Position numbers and translations under genes: made by a program. This document shows positions 43,608 to 63,633 of a DNA stretch of 64,000 bases, piece by piece (the first letter of the stretch is position 1; every line of letters begins with the position of its first letter). The notes beneath the pieces were generated by a model. The model was not told where the DNA came from. It was given only the letters and a program-made list of their open reading frames with translations, and did no database searches. Origin of the DNA: an uncultured Clostridia bacterium (GTDB lineage Bacteria; Bacillota; Clostridia; Christensenellales; UBA1242); the NCBI GenBank assembly GCA_944383315.1, contig CALWPB010000004.1, positions 10,818-74,817 on the forward strand, given 5' to 3'.

Positions 43608-43640
43608 AAAAGAACGTAACTTTAAGTTGCGTTCTTTCTT
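43608..43640 (-). terminator. Terminator after DGR target gene 1
   Basis: AAAGAACGTAAC-tttaa-GTTGCGTTCTTT hairpin. Confidence 0.65.
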
Positions 43641-45943
43641 TATAAAAACACAAAATCGCCTGTTTGTCCGTTGTCGGTATCATCATTAGTTGTTGAGTTG
43701 TCTATTGGGGCAAAGCGGGCTTGGACTATTTTTCCTAATACTGTTGCGCGGGATAATATGGTGGTTTCGTCCGTGCTAACTTGTATCCCGTCTATGTACC
43801 AACCTACAAAGCGGTAGCCTTGCATTTGCACTGCGGCTATTAGGGTAACTGTGTCCGTTGTGGAGTATGTGTCCCCTATTATTCGGGCTTCCCCGCCTAT
43901 ACTTGCGGTTATTGCCGTGTTGTTGTCTAGGTCAAAAGACAGGCTTGGAGTGGCTGATGCGTCCACACTAAATACTGGCACTACCTCCACTCCTTCGGCT
44001 TGTTCGCGTGGGAGTGTTAGGGTTGTACCCGTGTATGTGGTGCCGTTTTCAGTGTATAGCATATCCCCTACATACCAGCCGATTAGGTAGTATCCTGTAT
44101 ACGGTATCGCTTCGTATGATACTGTAGCACTGGTTGTGCCTGTGCCTAGGTCATTGCCACTTATACGAACTTCCCCGCCTAGTGTTGCGCTAGCAAATGC
44201 ATTTGAGCGTTTAAAGTATGCTACCGCTGTGGTATCTTGAGTTATAGTAAAGGTATAAACTGTACCCGCTGTATCATTTCGTACTCCATTGATTAACCAG
44301 TAATCAAGCCGGTATCCGTCATTTGCGGTAGCGGTCAGGGTTACTTGGTCGCTATATATTCCGCCACTTTGGGAACGAGAATATGTGGCTGTACCCCACG
44401 TATTGTTATTTGAAGACACAGACACAGTACACGGGGTAAATACTGCGGTGTATGTGGCATTACCTGTTACGGTGGGGCGATATGTGGTGCTTGTGGATAC
44501 CTGCGAGCCATTACGTTCCCATTGGACAAATTTATATCCAGTAATAGGTGTAGCGGTGAGTGTGGCGGTGGTGTTGATTGTGTATGTTCCGCCGCCTGTT
44601 GCTGTCCCTGTACCTGTTGGAGATACTGCTGTACTAATGGTAGCGGTGGCGGGCTCGAATATAGCGGTATAAGTATAACTGCCTGATACAGTGAAAGTAT
44701 AACTTGCACTTGTAGATACTTGGGTGCCGTTACGTTCCCAGCGAACAAAACGGTAGCCACTGTTAGCAGTGGCACGCAAAGTTATCGAAGTACCCTGCTT
44801 ATATGTGCCACCACCTGATACTGTGCCAGAGTTTGCGGGAGTATAGTTTGTTGTGATTGTATAACTTGGTAGTAAATCTTCTAGTGCTGAAAGGGAGAGA
44901 TGAGCGGCAGGACGGACGCCGTAGCTATAGTACACATAGTCGAAGCGAGCGGAGCCCGTGGAGCCCACTCGCACCGCATAGTAGTTAAAGTCAGAGAGGC
45001 CGGAGCGCAGCCAGCAATAGTTGCTGTAACCGCTACTACTACTTGAAGTAGACGTATTTGTATCTAATCGTACCGTGCTAAACGCACGGTCAGTGGCAGT
45101 TAAGCCCCATAAGCCATTGTTTACCTGTACACCATTCGTTGCTGATTGATTGAATACTTCTACACTACTTGGTATCCAGAATTTATCATTGTATGGTGGA
45201 TTTGTACTATCCCATAAGTTTTGTGCCCAACCTGTATATTTACCGCTATAACTTTTTAATCCATTGTGGTGGTCATAGTATGAACTACCCCAAGTGTATA
45301 CATCTTCCGTTTGTGTGGCTTGCCAAGTTGCATTCGCTTCATTTGGTGAGCGAACTATTGTGCTGAAATTGTTTAATTTAGCGGCTATTAAATCATAAAT
45401 ATTATTGGTTACGTCCCTTAGTACTGATTTGGAATAGTTACTATGTTCTGAATAAGGAGCATTACCTGAATAATCTGAAAATGGACTTGATGTTGATACA
45501 TTAGCATTATAATCATTATAATCGCTTACTGTATAATTTTTTGTCATCCAAATAGTTAAGTAGCCATTACGAGCGTATACTGCTTGCCAAGTGATTGGCT
45601 TACTTGTATCCATTACGCCACTTGGTGATACATAATACCCCATATTAAAGATAAAACTGTTTGTTGCGGTTATGCCTGCTTGGTCTGCTATTTGTGGGCT
45701 TGTATATGTACCGCCACTTGTTACAAAGTCTAGTTTGTCTACAAATTGAGATACTGCGTTTGCATTGAGTGAGCCATCTGTGTTGTATAAGTTGCCGCTA
45801 ATACTTAGAGTTGTTTCCCTTGTGGCGTTTGCTTTATTTATATGATTAACAATCAAGTATACACCGCTACCGATTAAAGCACCTGCCATAAAAACGACAG
45901 CAACTATAACACTTATTAACCTTGCTTTTGCGCTTAACTGCAT
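43640..45943 (-). CDS. Membrane-anchored surface protein with a DUF6273/CLec-like domain carrying a DGR variable region, followed by InlB-B-like repeats (putative DGR target 1)
   Basis: N-terminal TM; KFWIPSSVEV...CWLRSG...YGVRPAAHL; repeated T.TL.AT...GY.F..W units. Confidence 0.8.
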   Translation of the reverse strand: MQLSAKARLISVIVAVVFMAGALIGSGVYLIVNHINKANATRETTLSISGNLYNTDGSLNANAVSQFVDKLDFVTSGGTYTSPQIADQAGITATNSFIFNMGYYVSPSGVMDTSKPITWQAVYARNGYLTIWMTKNYTVSDYNDYNANVSTSSPFSDYSGNAPYSEHSNYSKSVLRDVTNNIYDLIAAKLNNFSTIVRSPNEANATWQATQTEDVYTWGSSYYDHHNGLKSYSGKYTGWAQNLWDSTNPPYNDKFWIPSSVEVFNQSATNGVQVNNGLWGLTATDRAFSTVRLDTNTSTSSSSSGYSNYCWLRSGLSDFNYYAVRVGSTGSARFDYVYYSYGVRPAAHLSLSALEDLLPSYTITTNYTPANSGTVSGGGTYKQGTSITLRATANSGYRFVRWERNGTQVSTSASYTFTVSGSYTYTAIFEPATATISTAVSPTGTGTATGGGTYTINTTATLTATPITGYKFVQWERNGSQVSTSTTYRPTVTGNATYTAVFTPCTVSVSSNNNTWGTATYSRSQSGGIYSDQVTLTATANDGYRLDYWLINGVRNDTAGTVYTFTITQDTTAVAYFKRSNAFASATLGGEVRISGNDLGTGTTSATVSYEAIPYTGYYLIGWYVGDMLYTENGTTYTGTTLTLPREQAEGVEVVPVFSVDASATPSLSFDLDNNTAITASIGGEARIIGDTYSTTDTVTLIAAVQMQGYRFVGWYIDGIQVSTDETTILSRATVLGKIVQARFAPIDNSTTNDDTDNGQTGDFVFL
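44901..45019 (-). repeat. DGR variable region VR1
   Basis: 99/119 nt identical to 61775-61893; all mismatches at codon positions 1-2. Confidence 0.85.
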
Positions 45944-46369
45944 AACACCACCCCCTTAGCTTGTGCGGGTGAGATCCTTCGTCTTAGGCTACGCGGGGAG
46001 CGCTCAGGATGACTATTTGCACTAGCAAATAGTCTGGCGGTAGTTTGTGCTATATTGGAATGCGGATATTCCCGCCAGCCGTGCAAAATATTAGTAAATA
46101 GGCTAGCAGAAGTAAATGTACTAGTAAGAAACAGATATTCCCGCCAGCCCAGTACTTTAATATCATATAGTTGTTGCAGACAACGCTTAGGCTGGCTTTC
46201 CGTGTGTGTAGTGAATGGATAAAATACACCCCATTGACTTACAAAGGGTTGTTCGTTATTTATTCGTTTTTGTGGAGAGAGAAAACTTGAAACAAGTTTT
46301 TTATAGGCTAAAAAGTACCCCCCCCCCCATACTATTTGGAAGGTTTGGGGCTAGTGTGTAACTATACAT
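45934..46369 (-). other. Leader ORF frameshifted at a G11 tract (putative phase-variable uORF overlapping the target start codon)
   Basis: AAGGGGT RBS and ATG at 46369; stops at 46301 with G11; with G10 or G13 it joins a 127-codon stop-free frame (46317-45937) ending TAA at 45936-45934. Confidence 0.55.
45971..46013 (-). repeat. REP-like hairpin GTCATCCTGAGCG...CGAAGGATCTC (copy 1)
   Basis: Matches the copies at 63671-63711 and 55659-55703. Confidence 0.65.
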
Positions 46370-46400
46370 AGCATTACCCCTTTTTTGTTATCTTACTTAA

Positions 46401-46429
46401 ATTTTAACAAAATATACTGCTTTTTGCAA
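46401..46429 (-). promoter_or_regulatory. Sigma-A promoter for the leader ORF and DGR target 1
   Basis: Minus strand TTGCAA-17 nt-TAAAAT with extended TG, about 30 nt upstream of the leader ATG. Confidence 0.6.
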
Positions 46430-46735
46430 ATGCACGCTTTAAGTTTGGCTCATTTTGAAATTACAATAAAAATATTGTTAAAAAGCGGGCAAAAACAGTT
46501 AAACTTGGAGATTAAATATACAATTTTTGTATTACAATATTGTATTAATAACTCAAAAAAACAAATTTTTTACAAAATTTAGCCATTATCATAATAATAA
46601 TCGAGAATATAAAATCATTTTTCCTTTCAAATTTTAAAGGGCAACTACAAAAAATATTTTTATAGTTTTATAAAAAATACGGAGATATTCTCCGTAAGTC
46701 AAACAAAACAAATTTAAAATGATAAAATTTAATTT

Positions 46736-46993
46736 ATGGATAAAATAAATAATTTCGCAAAAAATCTAGTAGAAGAACGGCGGGCGCGAAACATTTCACA
46801 ACGGAAATTAGCCGAATATCTTAATGTTGATGCCTCGCTTGTATATCAATGGGAGCACGAAAAGTGCGAACCCGGTCTTGATACTCTTTGTAAAATCAGT
46901 GCATATTTCGACATACCTATTGACGAATTGTTAGGGGCAAAATACCCCACCGCTTTATTAAACGAACAAGAAAGAAAAATTGCTCAAAATTAA
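46736..46993 (+). CDS. XRE-family HTH regulator
   Basis: ISQRKLAEYLNVDASLVYQWEHEKCEP...FDIPIDELLG. Confidence 0.87.
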   Translation: MDKINNFAKNLVEERRARNISQRKLAEYLNVDASLVYQWEHEKCEPGLDTLCKISAYFDIPIDELLGAKYPTALLNEQERKIAQN

Positions 46994-61131: not shown

Positions 61132-63633
61132 TTAGGCAAAATCGGCCGTTTGGTTGTTGTCTGTTTCGGTGTTCATATCGTTTTGATTGGGAATTAATGC
61201 AAAGACAGCAAAGACTTGTTTATCTTGAATTAAGTTATATGGGATGTTTGCGCTGGCTAGGTAATTTTGGTTAGTTGTACTGTCTATAAGTATTTCTCCG
61301 TCCACTTGCCAACCAACAAAGTAATATCCCGTATATGCTACCGCACTAAAATGAACGTAATCTATTCCGTTTAAAGTGGTGTAACCTGTTATTCGGGCTT
61401 CACCTGTTGCAGCGAGTGGTATATTATCTTGGTTGGTGGTGATTGTACCGTCTGTATTTTGGTATGCAATAGACACTGCTACCCCTTCTACACTCTTGCC
61501 AAATACAGCAGTGAGAGTGATATCGCCTGTTACTGTAAACGACAATGGGTTAAGTTCGCTAAATATTTCGTGAGTACTTGCATTTTCCCAGTATAGAAAA
61601 GCATAACCCGCGTTTGGTACTGCGATTAAATTAGATACTTGCTCACCTGTTGCTGCATTAACCGTTATGCTCTCGCCTATTTGTCCGTCTGCAAATACTT
61701 GTCCGTATTCGGAGTTGTTGGTGGTGATGGTGATATTTTTAGGTAATAAATTAGCTAAAGCATCTAAATCTAAGTGAGCGGCAGGACGGACGCCGTAGCT
61801 AGAGTCCACATCGCCGTAGTAAGCGGAGCCCGAGGAGTTCACTCGCATCGCACGGTTGACATTGCCAGAGTGGCCGGAGCGCAGCCAGCAATAATAACTT
61901 GTACTTGTACCGTCATAATTACTTGTATTAAATGAGCGGTCAGTGCTATTTAATCCCCATTGCCCCGTATAACTTGTAGTATTGTTTGTCCAACTTGCGT
62001 TCTGGTTATTCATTGTTTCACCCGCCGATGGCAACCATAAATAACTACTATTCGCTACCGCTGACGCTAAATTGTTGTATGTACTTGTAATAATACTATT
62101 TGTAGTATACCAATATGTTGTATTTGCTGTACTTGTATCTTGATAACCTACCGTCGCTGGTAGTTCAAATATTGATTGTAATGTACCACTACCCATAGTA
62201 AGCGCAGACCATAATGTGTTGTCTAAATAATTTTGTATTGTACTATTTGCATAAGCGGTATAATTTACTGTTACACCACTCTCATTCCAAGTACTATTTG
62301 TATAATTTTTTACCATCCATATTGTAAGGTAGTTATTATGTAGGTATGTTGCTCGCCAATAAATTGATTCGCCACTTGTTCCGTTTACATACCCCATTGG
62401 GAATACTATGGTGCGGTCGGAGTTGTAGCCTGCGGTATTGTTGCGAGATGCGATTTGGTGGGCGGTGTATGTTGCTGTGTCGTTTTCGTGTCCAAAGTAT
62501 TGGACGGTTTCAAGTAATGTGGTTACAGCATCGGGGTTGATTTCGCCATCAGTGGTGTAAATGTTTTCGGTTAGAGTGATTGGGGTTGATTGCACTATTT
62601 CTGCTAAGGCATCCAAAGAGAGATGAGCGGCAGGACGAACGCCAGTGCTATTATACAATCCAGTGCTATAAGCGTCGCCCGAGAAGTAAACTACTGTTGC
62701 ATAGCTGTTATTATCAAAATTGCTGGAACGCAGACTGCAACAACTATGACTGTCACTTCCATCGTAATTTGTTTGATCAAATGCACGATCATTACTATTT
62801 AATCCCCATTGCCCTGTATATGTTGTAGTATTACTTTCATATTCACTAGGTGTGTTATTGAAAACTTCTCCAAAAGAAGGAAGCCATAAATAACTGCCAC
62901 TATATACCGACGATGCTAAATTATCAAACGTACTTGTAGTTATATTAAACATAGCACTATCATAAAACCAATAACTACTTATATCACTTTCATCCCAATT
63001 TAAAGATTCATCTCCTTCGTCTTGATAACCTACTGTTGACGGTAAGACAAATATTGATTGTAATATACTGCTATCTTGTGTGAGTGTTCCCCATAGTGTG
63101 TAGTCTAAATAGTTTTGTATTGTACTGTTAGCATAACTATTGTAAGACACTTCATACCCTCTACTATCCCAAGCACTATTGGTATATCCTTTTACCATCC
63201 AAATGGTTATATAATTATCGTGCAAATAGGTTGCTTGCCAGTATATACTCTCGCCACTTTTTCCGTCAGTACCAGCATACCCCATTGGGAAGATTATTGC
63301 ATCATCTGGGTTGTATGTGGCTGATGTGTTTGTATTACTTGCGTTATATGTACGTGTACGTATTTGGTGCGCTTTGTATGTGCCTGTATCGTTCATATGT
63401 TTGTAATACCCTACCGCTTCAAGTAATGCTTGTGTGGCTGTTGCATTTATTGTGCCATCTGTATTAAATATGTTTGTCTTTAATTCGGTACTGCTTACTT
63501 CGCTATCAAGCATTGCTTTACTTTTATTTAAGTGATTAACAATCAAGTATACACCACTACCGATTAAAGCACCTGCCATAAAGACCAATGCGACTATTAG
63601 GCTCACGAGCCTTGCTTTTGCGCTGATTTGCAT
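61132..63633 (-). CDS. Membrane-anchored surface protein with two tandem DUF6273/CLec-like domains, the second carrying a DGR variable region (putative DGR target 2)
   Basis: N-terminus almost identical to 43640-45943; two WLPS..E...LRS...GVRPAAHL units; C-terminal InlB-B-like repeats. Confidence 0.8.
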   Translation of the reverse strand: MQISAKARLVSLIVALVFMAGALIGSGVYLIVNHLNKSKAMLDSEVSSTELKTNIFNTDGTINATATQALLEAVGYYKHMNDTGTYKAHQIRTRTYNASNTNTSATYNPDDAIIFPMGYAGTDGKSGESIYWQATYLHDNYITIWMVKGYTNSAWDSRGYEVSYNSYANSTIQNYLDYTLWGTLTQDSSILQSIFVLPSTVGYQDEGDESLNWDESDISSYWFYDSAMFNITTSTFDNLASSVYSGSYLWLPSFGEVFNNTPSEYESNTTTYTGQWGLNSNDRAFDQTNYDGSDSHSCCSLRSSNFDNNSYATVVYFSGDAYSTGLYNSTGVRPAAHLSLDALAEIVQSTPITLTENIYTTDGEINPDAVTTLLETVQYFGHENDTATYTAHQIASRNNTAGYNSDRTIVFPMGYVNGTSGESIYWRATYLHNNYLTIWMVKNYTNSTWNESGVTVNYTAYANSTIQNYLDNTLWSALTMGSGTLQSIFELPATVGYQDTSTANTTYWYTTNSIITSTYNNLASAVANSSYLWLPSAGETMNNQNASWTNNTTSYTGQWGLNSTDRSFNTSNYDGTSTSYYCWLRSGHSGNVNRAMRVNSSGSAYYGDVDSSYGVRPAAHLDLDALANLLPKNITITTNNSEYGQVFADGQIGESITVNAATGEQVSNLIAVPNAGYAFLYWENASTHEIFSELNPLSFTVTGDITLTAVFGKSVEGVAVSIAYQNTDGTITTNQDNIPLAATGEARITGYTTLNGIDYVHFSAVAYTGYYFVGWQVDGEILIDSTTNQNYLASANIPYNLIQDKQVFAVFALIPNQNDMNTETDNNQTADFA
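61775..61893 (-). repeat. DGR variable region VR2
   Basis: 99/119 nt identical to 44901-45019 with the adenine-site mismatch pattern. Confidence 0.85.
62624..62742 (-). repeat. Degenerate VR-like copy (VR3) in the first CLec-like domain
   Basis: Gap-free and colinear with VR1/VR2, same CGTCCTGCCGCTCA end, but many synonymous changes. Confidence 0.65.

Follow-up and report, generated by a model that had tools for sequence, protein, structure and literature searches.

Runs of G or C that act as contingency loci inside genes are the classical case of poly-G/C phase variation, as in pilC, lgt and hmbR of Neisseria. In Haemophilus influenzae, tetranucleotide repeats in the small upstream open reading frame (ORF) lex2A are reported to control the downstream glycosyltransferase gene lex2B. 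The closest proven system to the locus that we describe here is the leader-peptide switch of Streptococcus gallolyticus pil1 (and pil3). In pil1 a leader peptide varies in length with its GCAGA repeats, and a premature terminator is destabilised by ribosomes (Danne et al. 2014, PMC3894217). Helicobacter pylori tlpB has a leader with a variable G repeat that pairs with the small RNA (sRNA) RepG (PMC8295292), and in H. influenzae hmw1A a repeat in the 5' untranslated region (UTR) forms a hairpin, with RNase III processing (PMC12721329). The Campylobacter phasome is a comparison example of the classical intragenic poly-G/C loci (PMC6321876), and a further paper names lex2A simply as a phase-variable gene (PMC6479036). 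Here we analyse a run of eleven G (G11) in the leader of a predicted hypervariable surface-protein gene, in a 64,000-nt stretch of DNA (the window) from an uncultured Clostridia bacterium (assembly GCA_944383315.1, contig CALWPB010000004.1). Coordinates are positions in the window, and the poly-G module is read on the minus strand.

The original prediction, made from the sequence alone, described a promoter, a ribosome-binding site, a leader ORF and a slippage-prone G tract upstream of a target of a diversity-generating retroelement (DGR), and proposed that tract length turns this target ON or OFF. The observations behind it, meaning promoter, ribosome-binding site, ATG, tract and reading frames, were confirmed when we re-read the sequence. 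The predicted promoter is in place on the minus strand, with TTGCAA at 46429-46424, a 17-nt spacer and TAAAAT at 46406-46401; its -10 is TG-extended, and the promoter scan counts 9 of 12 consensus matches. The leader ATG at 46369 follows the AAGGGGT ribosome-binding site, and 13 further codons (MYSYTLAPNLPNSM) separate it from the G11 run, which stands 41 nt past the ATG. Directly 3' of the tract comes TACTTTTTAGCCTATAA, a stop trap whose motif is conserved beside G tracts throughout the genus.

We translated the leader at tract lengths from 8 to 15. With G11, as assembled, the peptide has 22 aa and ends at the stop at 46303-46301, and with G12 it has 20 aa. With G10 (144 aa) or G13 (145 aa) the leader enters a frame of 127 post-tract sense codons, and the stop of this ON frame, TAA at 45936-45934, lies 8-10 nt past the A of the main ATG (45943). 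Counting stops from the tract to the main ATG in the window copy gives 0, 5 and 13 for the three frames, and when this stretch was shuffled with its dinucleotides preserved, any frame stayed open in just 6 of 5000 cases. A 1-nt change in tract length alters the reading frame of the leader, which is how the repeat of a slipped-strand contingency locus is placed. The tract is also far longer than composition predicts, as at such loci: a pattern of nine G matched in the window at this tract alone, and 0 of 100 shuffles had any match. As in pil1-type systems, a structural gene is preceded by a leader-peptide ORF that contains the repeat, and this ORF is probably translated, judging by its Shine-Dalgarno (SD) sequence and ATG.

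The assembly (903 kb in 26 contigs, 36% G+C, rated 76% complete) has four G or C runs of at least 7 nt, three of them G11 and one C8, and no run of 9 or 10. The C8 run, at G000 C14:2886-2893, is the sole other G/C run longer than 6 in the genome. Each of the three G11 runs (in the window, at C1:21198-21208 and at C3:29317-29327) stands before a paralog of the window gene. By alignment the module has the same order in all three copies: palindrome block, promoter, SD, ATG plus 13 codons, G11, (T)ACTTTTTAGCCTATAA and an AU-rich hairpin. The C1 leader is 89% identical to the window leader. The C3 leader has 160 nt versus 374 in the window, and its middle part is unrelated.

It had been asked whether other paralogs have poly-G leaders whose open frame ends on the start codon, and C1 and C3 are two further examples. 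Exactly one post-tract frame is open in each of the three own copies, and its stop falls 2-11 nt past the main ATG. The ON frames end in ...TTATGCAGTTAA in the window, ...ATATGCAAATTAG in C1 and ...TTATGA in C3, which puts their stops at +8 to +10, +9 to +11 and +2 to +4 relative to the A of the main ATG; all three copies have the stop/start proximity of a translationally coupled ORF pair. After the tract, the ON frame runs without a stop for 127 codons in the window, 128 in C1 (where stops in the long frame would have spoken against the prediction), 53 in C3 and 30 in L080, a metagenomic contig described below. The other frames have 1-13 stops. Since C3 has no T after the tract, its assembled G11 reads the long frame (71 codons) and is ON; the window and C1 copies are OFF as assembled. 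In shuffles, any frame was open in 8 of 5000 for C1 and in 819 of 5000 for C3 (289 of 5000 for C3's particular frame). The C1 and window leaders have 37 differences over 345 nt, falling 9, 15 and 13 on the three codon positions. We saw no selection on the leader-peptide sequence, the C1-window differences being without codon-position bias; going by this comparison, it is the openness of the frame that is kept and not the peptide sequence.

The upstream regions of further family members bear on the same arrangement. A tblastn search with the first 130 residues of the main protein gave 19 matching stretches in the own genome, and we extracted the upstream regions of 16 paralog gene starts for comparison of the leaders. 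In 7 of these 16, including the three poly-G copies, an upstream ORF (uORF) terminates 4-11 nt past the A of the main ATG. Three paralogs that we call type C (G000 C3:11515, C1:82010 and C7:52396) have a constitutive uORF, MPYIRT..., which is SD-preceded, 35-36 codons long and ends at the same GTGGTNTTATGCAGTTAA (...GGTGGTNTTATGCAGTTAA). Its frame and last codons at the main start match the ON frame of the window, and in one type C paralog a 3-nt indel leaves the uORF frame intact. In the C8 paralog the uORF has 36 codons and ends in ATGA. The 13 paralog upstream regions without a tract have no open frame over the last 160 or 375 nt.

We believe, with moderate confidence, that a tract-length switch in the leader ORF gates the surface-protein gene, chiefly by translational coupling. 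On this reading, the G11 run would act as a slipped-strand contingency tract within a short leader ORF that is translated upstream of the hypervariable surface-protein gene, and the length of the run would set the leader reading frame. In two of the three phases, including the assembled G11, ribosomes would stop 7-14 nt past the tract and leave about 360 nt of structured, untranslated leader before a partly paired main SD. In the ON phase (G10 or G13) they would cross the leader hairpins, translate 127 more codons and terminate 8-10 nt past the main ATG. The arrival of ribosomes would raise expression of the surface protein via translational coupling, through SD unmasking, termination-reinitiation or both, and protection from premature termination or mRNA decay may contribute. 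The protein's own frame and N-terminus would be unchanged by tract length. We infer from the sequence that the predicted promoter is active, that the leader is translated and that the downstream gene is affected. In four differently built leaders the ON-frame stop lies within 11 nt of the start. As for the ON/OFF switching that was originally proposed, the computational predictions held (paralog leaders, length differences, open frames and no internal promoter), and we still only infer the ON/OFF effect itself and the melting of the leader followed by re-initiation.

The leader is predicted to be strongly structured. Its 470 nt fold to a minimum free energy of -135.1 kcal/mol (z = -3.35), and 0 of 100 shuffles folded equally well. 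The main SD also comes out as mostly paired in the predictions. Both structures named in the original prediction were recovered: the 10-bp hairpin GACTATTTGC/GCAAATAGTC at 46034-46011 is present in the predicted leader fold, and the stem beside the ribosome-binding site, likened to a repetitive extragenic palindromic (REP) sequence, belongs to a repeat element of which genome-wide BLAST gave at least 8 more partial copies. Many partial copies of this REP-like or miniature inverted-repeat transposable element (MITE)-like sequence sit in the 5' UTRs of paralogs. The promoter scan gave no promoter-like site between the tract and the main gene, as the proposal had required. A terminator scan of the window leader (45943-46318) gave no terminator-like site, so the premature terminator of pil1-type systems was not found there. 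The assembled 76% of the genome gave no Rho; its sole Rho_RNA_bind match is the cold-shock domain of an RNase R-like protein. A scan of the whole window at Rfam gathering thresholds returned two tRNAs and an L10 leader only, with no family on the poly-G leader. SNORA2, the sole result of an Rfam E-value scan of 45800-46700, was rejected as a chance match (E = 0.59).

Public runs with this stretch are mostly chicken-gut metagenomes, and we compared four of them as assembled Logan contigs. The contigs of runs X1 and X2 span the tract identically, with G11; X3 has a G11 contig that matches the C1 paralog. In X19, which comes from a different study, a contig spanning 46286-46417 has one C fewer, that is G10, and one substitution just after the tract, and it is without the C1-specific differences. 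Applying the listed X19 differences (a few are not included) to the window gives an open 144-codon leader, and for these listed differences the long frame of the G10 allele has no stop, which agrees with the prediction. Tract length appears to differ, as had been supposed, both between samples (G10 and G11 contigs) and between species (10-13 G). Two candidates for evidence were dropped. Contig breaks near the tract are explicable by the paralogous repeat. The paired -1/+1 indels of X19 (46135, 46141) seem to arise from the alignment of a substitution-rich segment that resembles C1, and were not counted. A metagenome scan with the pre-tract flank plus G8 gave no match, and one with the post-tract motif gave one low-coverage contig, L080 (~3x). 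L080 (1-160) has the same leader start; its tract is collapsed to AGGG, in the OFF phase, and is followed by a third kind of short leader (89 nt) whose ON frame is open and ends ATGA on the main start.

We searched a 181-nt module query in 16 other genomes of the genus and in 24 outside it (8 other genera of the family and 16 other families of the order). It matches 7 of the 16, with matches that centre on the tract and the motif after it, and it has no match in the 24 searched genomes outside the genus. G runs of at least 10 occur in 14 of the 17 genus genomes, and some genomes have many. Loss of mismatch repair was rejected as the cause, because MutL is present in 17 of 17. Many of the relatives' G tracts lie near contig ends.

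From the matched loci and 20 regions of the genomes G006 and G001 we sampled 45 distinct tracts of relatives, excluding identical-flank duplicates and own-genome rows. In 38 of the 45 a stop follows within 15 nt in each OFF frame, and 34 have the full module, with an SD and ATG upstream as well as these stops. The SD and ATG stand 29-69 nt before tracts across the genus. Among the 34 full-module tracts, lengths are G10 (9), G11 (11), G12 (11) and G13 (3), with 23 in the OFF phase and 11 ON. Four of 11 tracts are ON in G006, a genome that is nearly complete. On its 3 contigs (C1-C3), ten of the 11 tracts with at least 10 G share a strand, the minus strand. A congener locus, L021 in G016, failed the automatic SD filter, and manual reading places it as leader-type, with an open frame that ends ATGGTAA on the main start. 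Three leader-type copies in G012 have an open frame that ends in the loop of a conserved 10-11-bp hairpin with a compensatory change. The pattern G10-CNYTWWWWTAG occurs in 2 of 81 sampled family genomes, G016 (13 copies), which is the only congener besides the own genome in that sample, and G076 (one copy); outside the genus the module was thus not found except for the one copy in G076. From the comparison with relatives we take the window switch to be a derived, uORF-type member of a genus-wide poly-G system.

Several observations weigh against a coupled switch of this kind. In relatives, 19 of the 34 full-module tracts belong to the main ORF itself (the fused type): their third frame continues for at least 900 nt as M-(9-12 aa)-Gn-RLNSPKI...-TM-...LIVNHINK, where TM is a transmembrane segment. 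This places the tract in the N-terminal, cytoplasmic tail of the surface protein, as in classical intragenic frameshift phase variation. Five of the 34 are leader-type copies that end 17-408 nt before the next gene, some of them 209-408 nt before it, and the stop/start overlap is therefore not universal in the module; the remaining full-module tracts are three leader-type copies without a downstream gene in the locus and seven that are unclassifiable because the locus is short. In the own genome, 9 of the 16 paralogs have no uORF ending on the start and yet have the same kind of SD and ATG, and the main gene has a strong SD and ATG of its own, so it could be translated independently of the leader. 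C1 adds little independent support because random differences often keep its frame open (random placement of its 37 differences does so in 4630 of 20000 trials) and because its differences lack codon-position bias. The window and C1 tracts also share about 100 identical flanking bases, so in a short-read assembly their equal G11 lengths may not be independent. The X19 contig would represent an ON allele, but its G10 stands in one contig of depth ~9 and could be an assembly error. In L080 the main ORF is open for 382 codons, after which it stops, despite the degenerate OFF-phase tract, in a contig of low coverage, and this may be a locked allele or a contig error. Paralog types differ little in the predicted masking of the main SD: its mean probability of being unpaired tends to be lowest in the poly-G copies (0.30 in the window, 0.35 and 0.15 in the other two), against 0.42-0.53 for type C and, for six copies that have no uORF, 0.34-0.64, a small difference that comes from single-sequence folds and supports masking weakly.

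The main rival takes these points together and holds that the leader is vestigial, a relic of a fused ancestral arrangement after which the gene gained its own SD and ATG, so that the tract may slip without controlling the gene. We consider this unlikely. The fused majority among relatives, the nine own paralogs that carry the same kind of SD and ATG without a uORF on the start, the open main ORF of L080 behind its degenerate tract, the leader peptide without purifying selection and the beginning of the window gene just before the homologous TM segment all speak for it. A relic should gain stops, however, and the ON frames (127, 128, 53 and 30 codons) have none while the other frames have 1-13. 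Nor does it sit well with a G11 kept at three loci in a genome that has no other G/C run of comparable length, or with an ON-frame stop so close to the start in four leaders of different build.

Pure transcription attenuation of the pil1 type, in which the leader frame would decide whether a premature terminator is disrupted and translational coupling plays no part, seems to us quite improbable as the whole explanation. The mechanism is proven for S. gallolyticus pil1 (PMC3894217), the C3 ON frame contains AGCCG..CGGCT and then T6, C3 also has a C-rich/poly-G hairpin followed by a T run, and the G012 frames ending in a conserved hairpin loop would fit it as well. But the C3 hairpin is weak (-6.2 kcal/mol), the post-tract hairpin is AU-rich (-4.8 kcal/mol) and located where OFF-frame ribosomes also stop, and an ON frame running to the main ATG is left unexplained. 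Because the scan gave no terminator-like site in the window leader and C3 has a weak one, we rank attenuation second as a mechanism; some pil1-like attenuation alongside coupling is possible. We find it very hard to favour a frame-independent RNA or DNA element, in which the G run would be the 3' arm of a hairpin with an upstream C-rich stretch, or an sRNA target, and tract length would tune expression gradually. C-rich stretches do precede the tract in own copies and relatives (GCCCCAAACC, GCCCCGCCCCC, CCCGCCCGCT) and pair with the G run in the predicted fold, and the RepG/tlpB leader is a precedent (PMC8295292), but such an element leaves unexplained the near-constant distance of SD and ATG, the stops in two frames, the long open third frame and the fused relatives. 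That the tract is a sequencing or assembly artefact of the poly-G read-end kind, as the contig-end position of many relatives' tracts might suggest, can practically be dismissed: the contig, 76 kb long, continues on both sides of the tract, the contigs from two other runs are identical across it, and the conserved SD-ATG-tract-stop module is found in many genomes from different assemblies. We keep a tract-length switch acting chiefly by translational coupling as our reading of the locus.

The gene that would be switched belongs to a family with a variable segment. The main protein has a weak DUF6273 match, a WLRS...GVRP variable segment and four Flg_new_2 repeats. About 120 nt (TATTGCTGGCTGCGCTCCGGC...GGCGTCCGTCCTGCCGCTCA) form an invariant scaffold common to at least 10 paralog segments, including that of the window, which have otherwise diverged; as in DGR variable regions (VRs), the differences occur at discrete sites. 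The window contains a second family member, at 61132-63633 (minus strand, 833 aa), which has two DUF6273-like segments and a leader without a G tract. Its segment 61775-61893 carries the VR scaffold with 83% identity to 44901-45019, and 16 of the 20 mismatches between the two VR copies of the window involve A in one copy. An adenine-poor cassette occupies the VR slot of the type C paralogs. The RVT_1 profile had 0 matches in the own 76%-complete assembly, and no A-rich template copy was among the blastn matches, so a cognate template repeat (TR) with a reverse transcriptase (RT) was not found there. In the genus, an RT of 388-493 aa occurs in 10 of 17 genomes, and the locus L057 has an AAC-rich, TR-like stretch beside an RT. 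The claim that the gene is a DGR target is thus upheld for the variable-region signature, which is plain, and not for the RT and template repeat in this assembly. We accept the main gene as a likely DGR-type target on that signature; the DGR element is either unassembled in the own genome or lost.

Table 1. Positions of the features of the poly-G locus and of the gene downstream of it
Feature	Positions	Strand	Basis and remarks
Palindrome-containing block (ATACAATATTGTAATAC..AAATTGTATATTT), candidate operator	46514..46545	-	~90 nt upstream of promoter; conserved in the three poly-G paralogs
Predicted sigma-70-type promoter TTGCAA-17-TAAAAT	46401..46429	-	Promoter scan; conserved in C1 and C3 copies; expected transcription start site ~46394
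Shine-Dalgarno AAGGGGT of leader ORF	46376..46382	-	Sequence and paralog alignment
Leader ORF as assembled (G11), OFF frame, MYSYTLAPNLPNSMGGGVLFSL then stop	46301..46369	-	Translation
G11 homopolymer (C11 on plus), slippage-prone	46318..46328	-	Homopolymer counts; G11 in spanning contigs of X1 and X2, G10 in X19 contig
Stop trap TACTTTTTAGCCTATAA	46301..46317	-	TAG 46310-46308 and TAA 46303-46301, one per OFF frame
AU-rich hairpin AAAAACTTG-TTT-CAAGTTTT, then pyrimidine run	46281..46301	-	Folds at -4.8 to -6.4 kcal/mol in three own copies; conserved in alignment
ON-frame extension of leader ORF (G10 or G13), 127 sense codons	45934..46317	-	Overlaps main start region; 0 stops
Second GGCTGGCGGGAATATC box	46149-46134	-	Alongside REP/MITE-like leader element
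REP/MITE-like repeat within leader	45965..46080	-	Includes hairpin 46034-46011 and stem CATCCTGAGC..GACGAAGGATCTC; genome copies, fold
Main-gene Shine-Dalgarno AAGGGGGTGG, predicted partly base-paired	45947..45957	-	Mean P(unpaired) 0.30
Main gene, 767 aa, predicted N-terminally membrane-anchored surface protein	43640..45943	-	Basic N-terminus, hydrophobic anchor, profile matches
Likely DGR-type variable region within main gene	44901..45019	-	Scaffold comparison

Other elements of these leaders may add to their regulation. The palindrome within the block upstream of the promoter is TACAATATTGTA, and the block could possibly be an operator. An 85-aa XRE-family helix-turn-helix (HTH) protein (HTH_3, E = 4e-11) is encoded at 46736-46993 on the plus strand, divergent from the poly-G promoter, and a small divergent HTH gene seemingly also stands upstream of several other paralogs, as read from their upstream sequences. 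The divergent HTH gene could be a second, conventional regulatory layer. In the congener loci L067, L068, L076 and L078 a sequence like the leader repeat is, by eye only, apparently translated in frame within fused-type N-terminal tails (peptides e.g. LSLRGSIATAAIS). Seven paralogs that we call type B (G000 C4:10603, C4:74450, C1:3309, C21:182, C13:27655, C13:20082 and C2:83480) have a different promoter block, preceded by an A6-A9 run, and these A runs might vary in length too. The arms of the type B 5' hairpin differ between copies and keep their complementarity (GGAGA/TCTCC, AGAGTA/TACTCT, TATAGA/TCTATA).

A broader proposal, which we put forward tentatively and with rather more doubt than the switch itself, is a two-layer system of surface variation in which a DGR rewrites the ligand-binding loop of at least 16 surface proteins and poly-G tracts stochastically gate members of the family, with the gate moved in this species into a uORF coupled to the main start. 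With the gate moved out of the coding sequence, expression could flip without touching the protein. If this is true, hypermutation of the binding loop would be stacked with a stochastic choice of the paralog to be expressed; of the three that are gated, C3 alone would be ON in the assembled population, and a gut commensal with a ~1.1-Mb genome would have a primitive form of antigenic variation. If the switch works, it would extend repeat-driven phase variation beyond the classical pathogens (Neisseria, Haemophilus, Campylobacter, Helicobacter and the mycoplasmas), and would make it a major device, used family-wide, of uncultured gut Clostridia with small genomes. In the literature that we searched, judging by title and abstract, no report of simple sequence repeats gating DGR targets surfaced.

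Set beside the known systems, the window locus resembles the classical intragenic loci in that a long run of G or C follows closely on a start codon in an AT-rich genome, that one phase is ON and two are OFF, and that there are many loci per genome in mixed states; its congeners in the genus show exactly the classical form. It differs in that the own genome carries the tract in a distinct ORF upstream, which is not in frame with the gene and ends on the gene's start. With lex2A/lex2B it shares a repeat in an upstream ORF and an effect, here predicted, on the downstream ORF, although there the repeat unit is GCAA, the host is a Gram-negative pathogen and the product of the upstream ORF has a described role. 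As in tlpB and hmw1A, the variable repeat is in the (predicted) transcribed 5' leader, and in those two it acts post-transcriptionally. Those leaders work by pairing with an sRNA or by RNase III processing, independently of any reading frame, whereas the SD, the ATG and the stop trap in two frames argue for a frame-based switch here.

The likeness to pil1 is closest. In both, a slippage-prone repeat lies in a short leader-peptide ORF upstream of a gene for a surface structure, the frame of the structural gene is untouched, and the number of repeats sets (here, would set) how far ribosomes reach into a structured leader; in pil1 the longer reading raises downstream expression. Unlike the GCAGA units of pil1, the repeat here is a G homopolymer, the window leader has no convincing intrinsic terminator, and the controlled gene would be a DGR-type hypervariable member of a multigene family. 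The long frame also reaches the main start codon, which points to translational coupling as the difference from pil1. The uORF-coupled form would be a compact natural design, in which a homopolymer switches a gene without altering its product.

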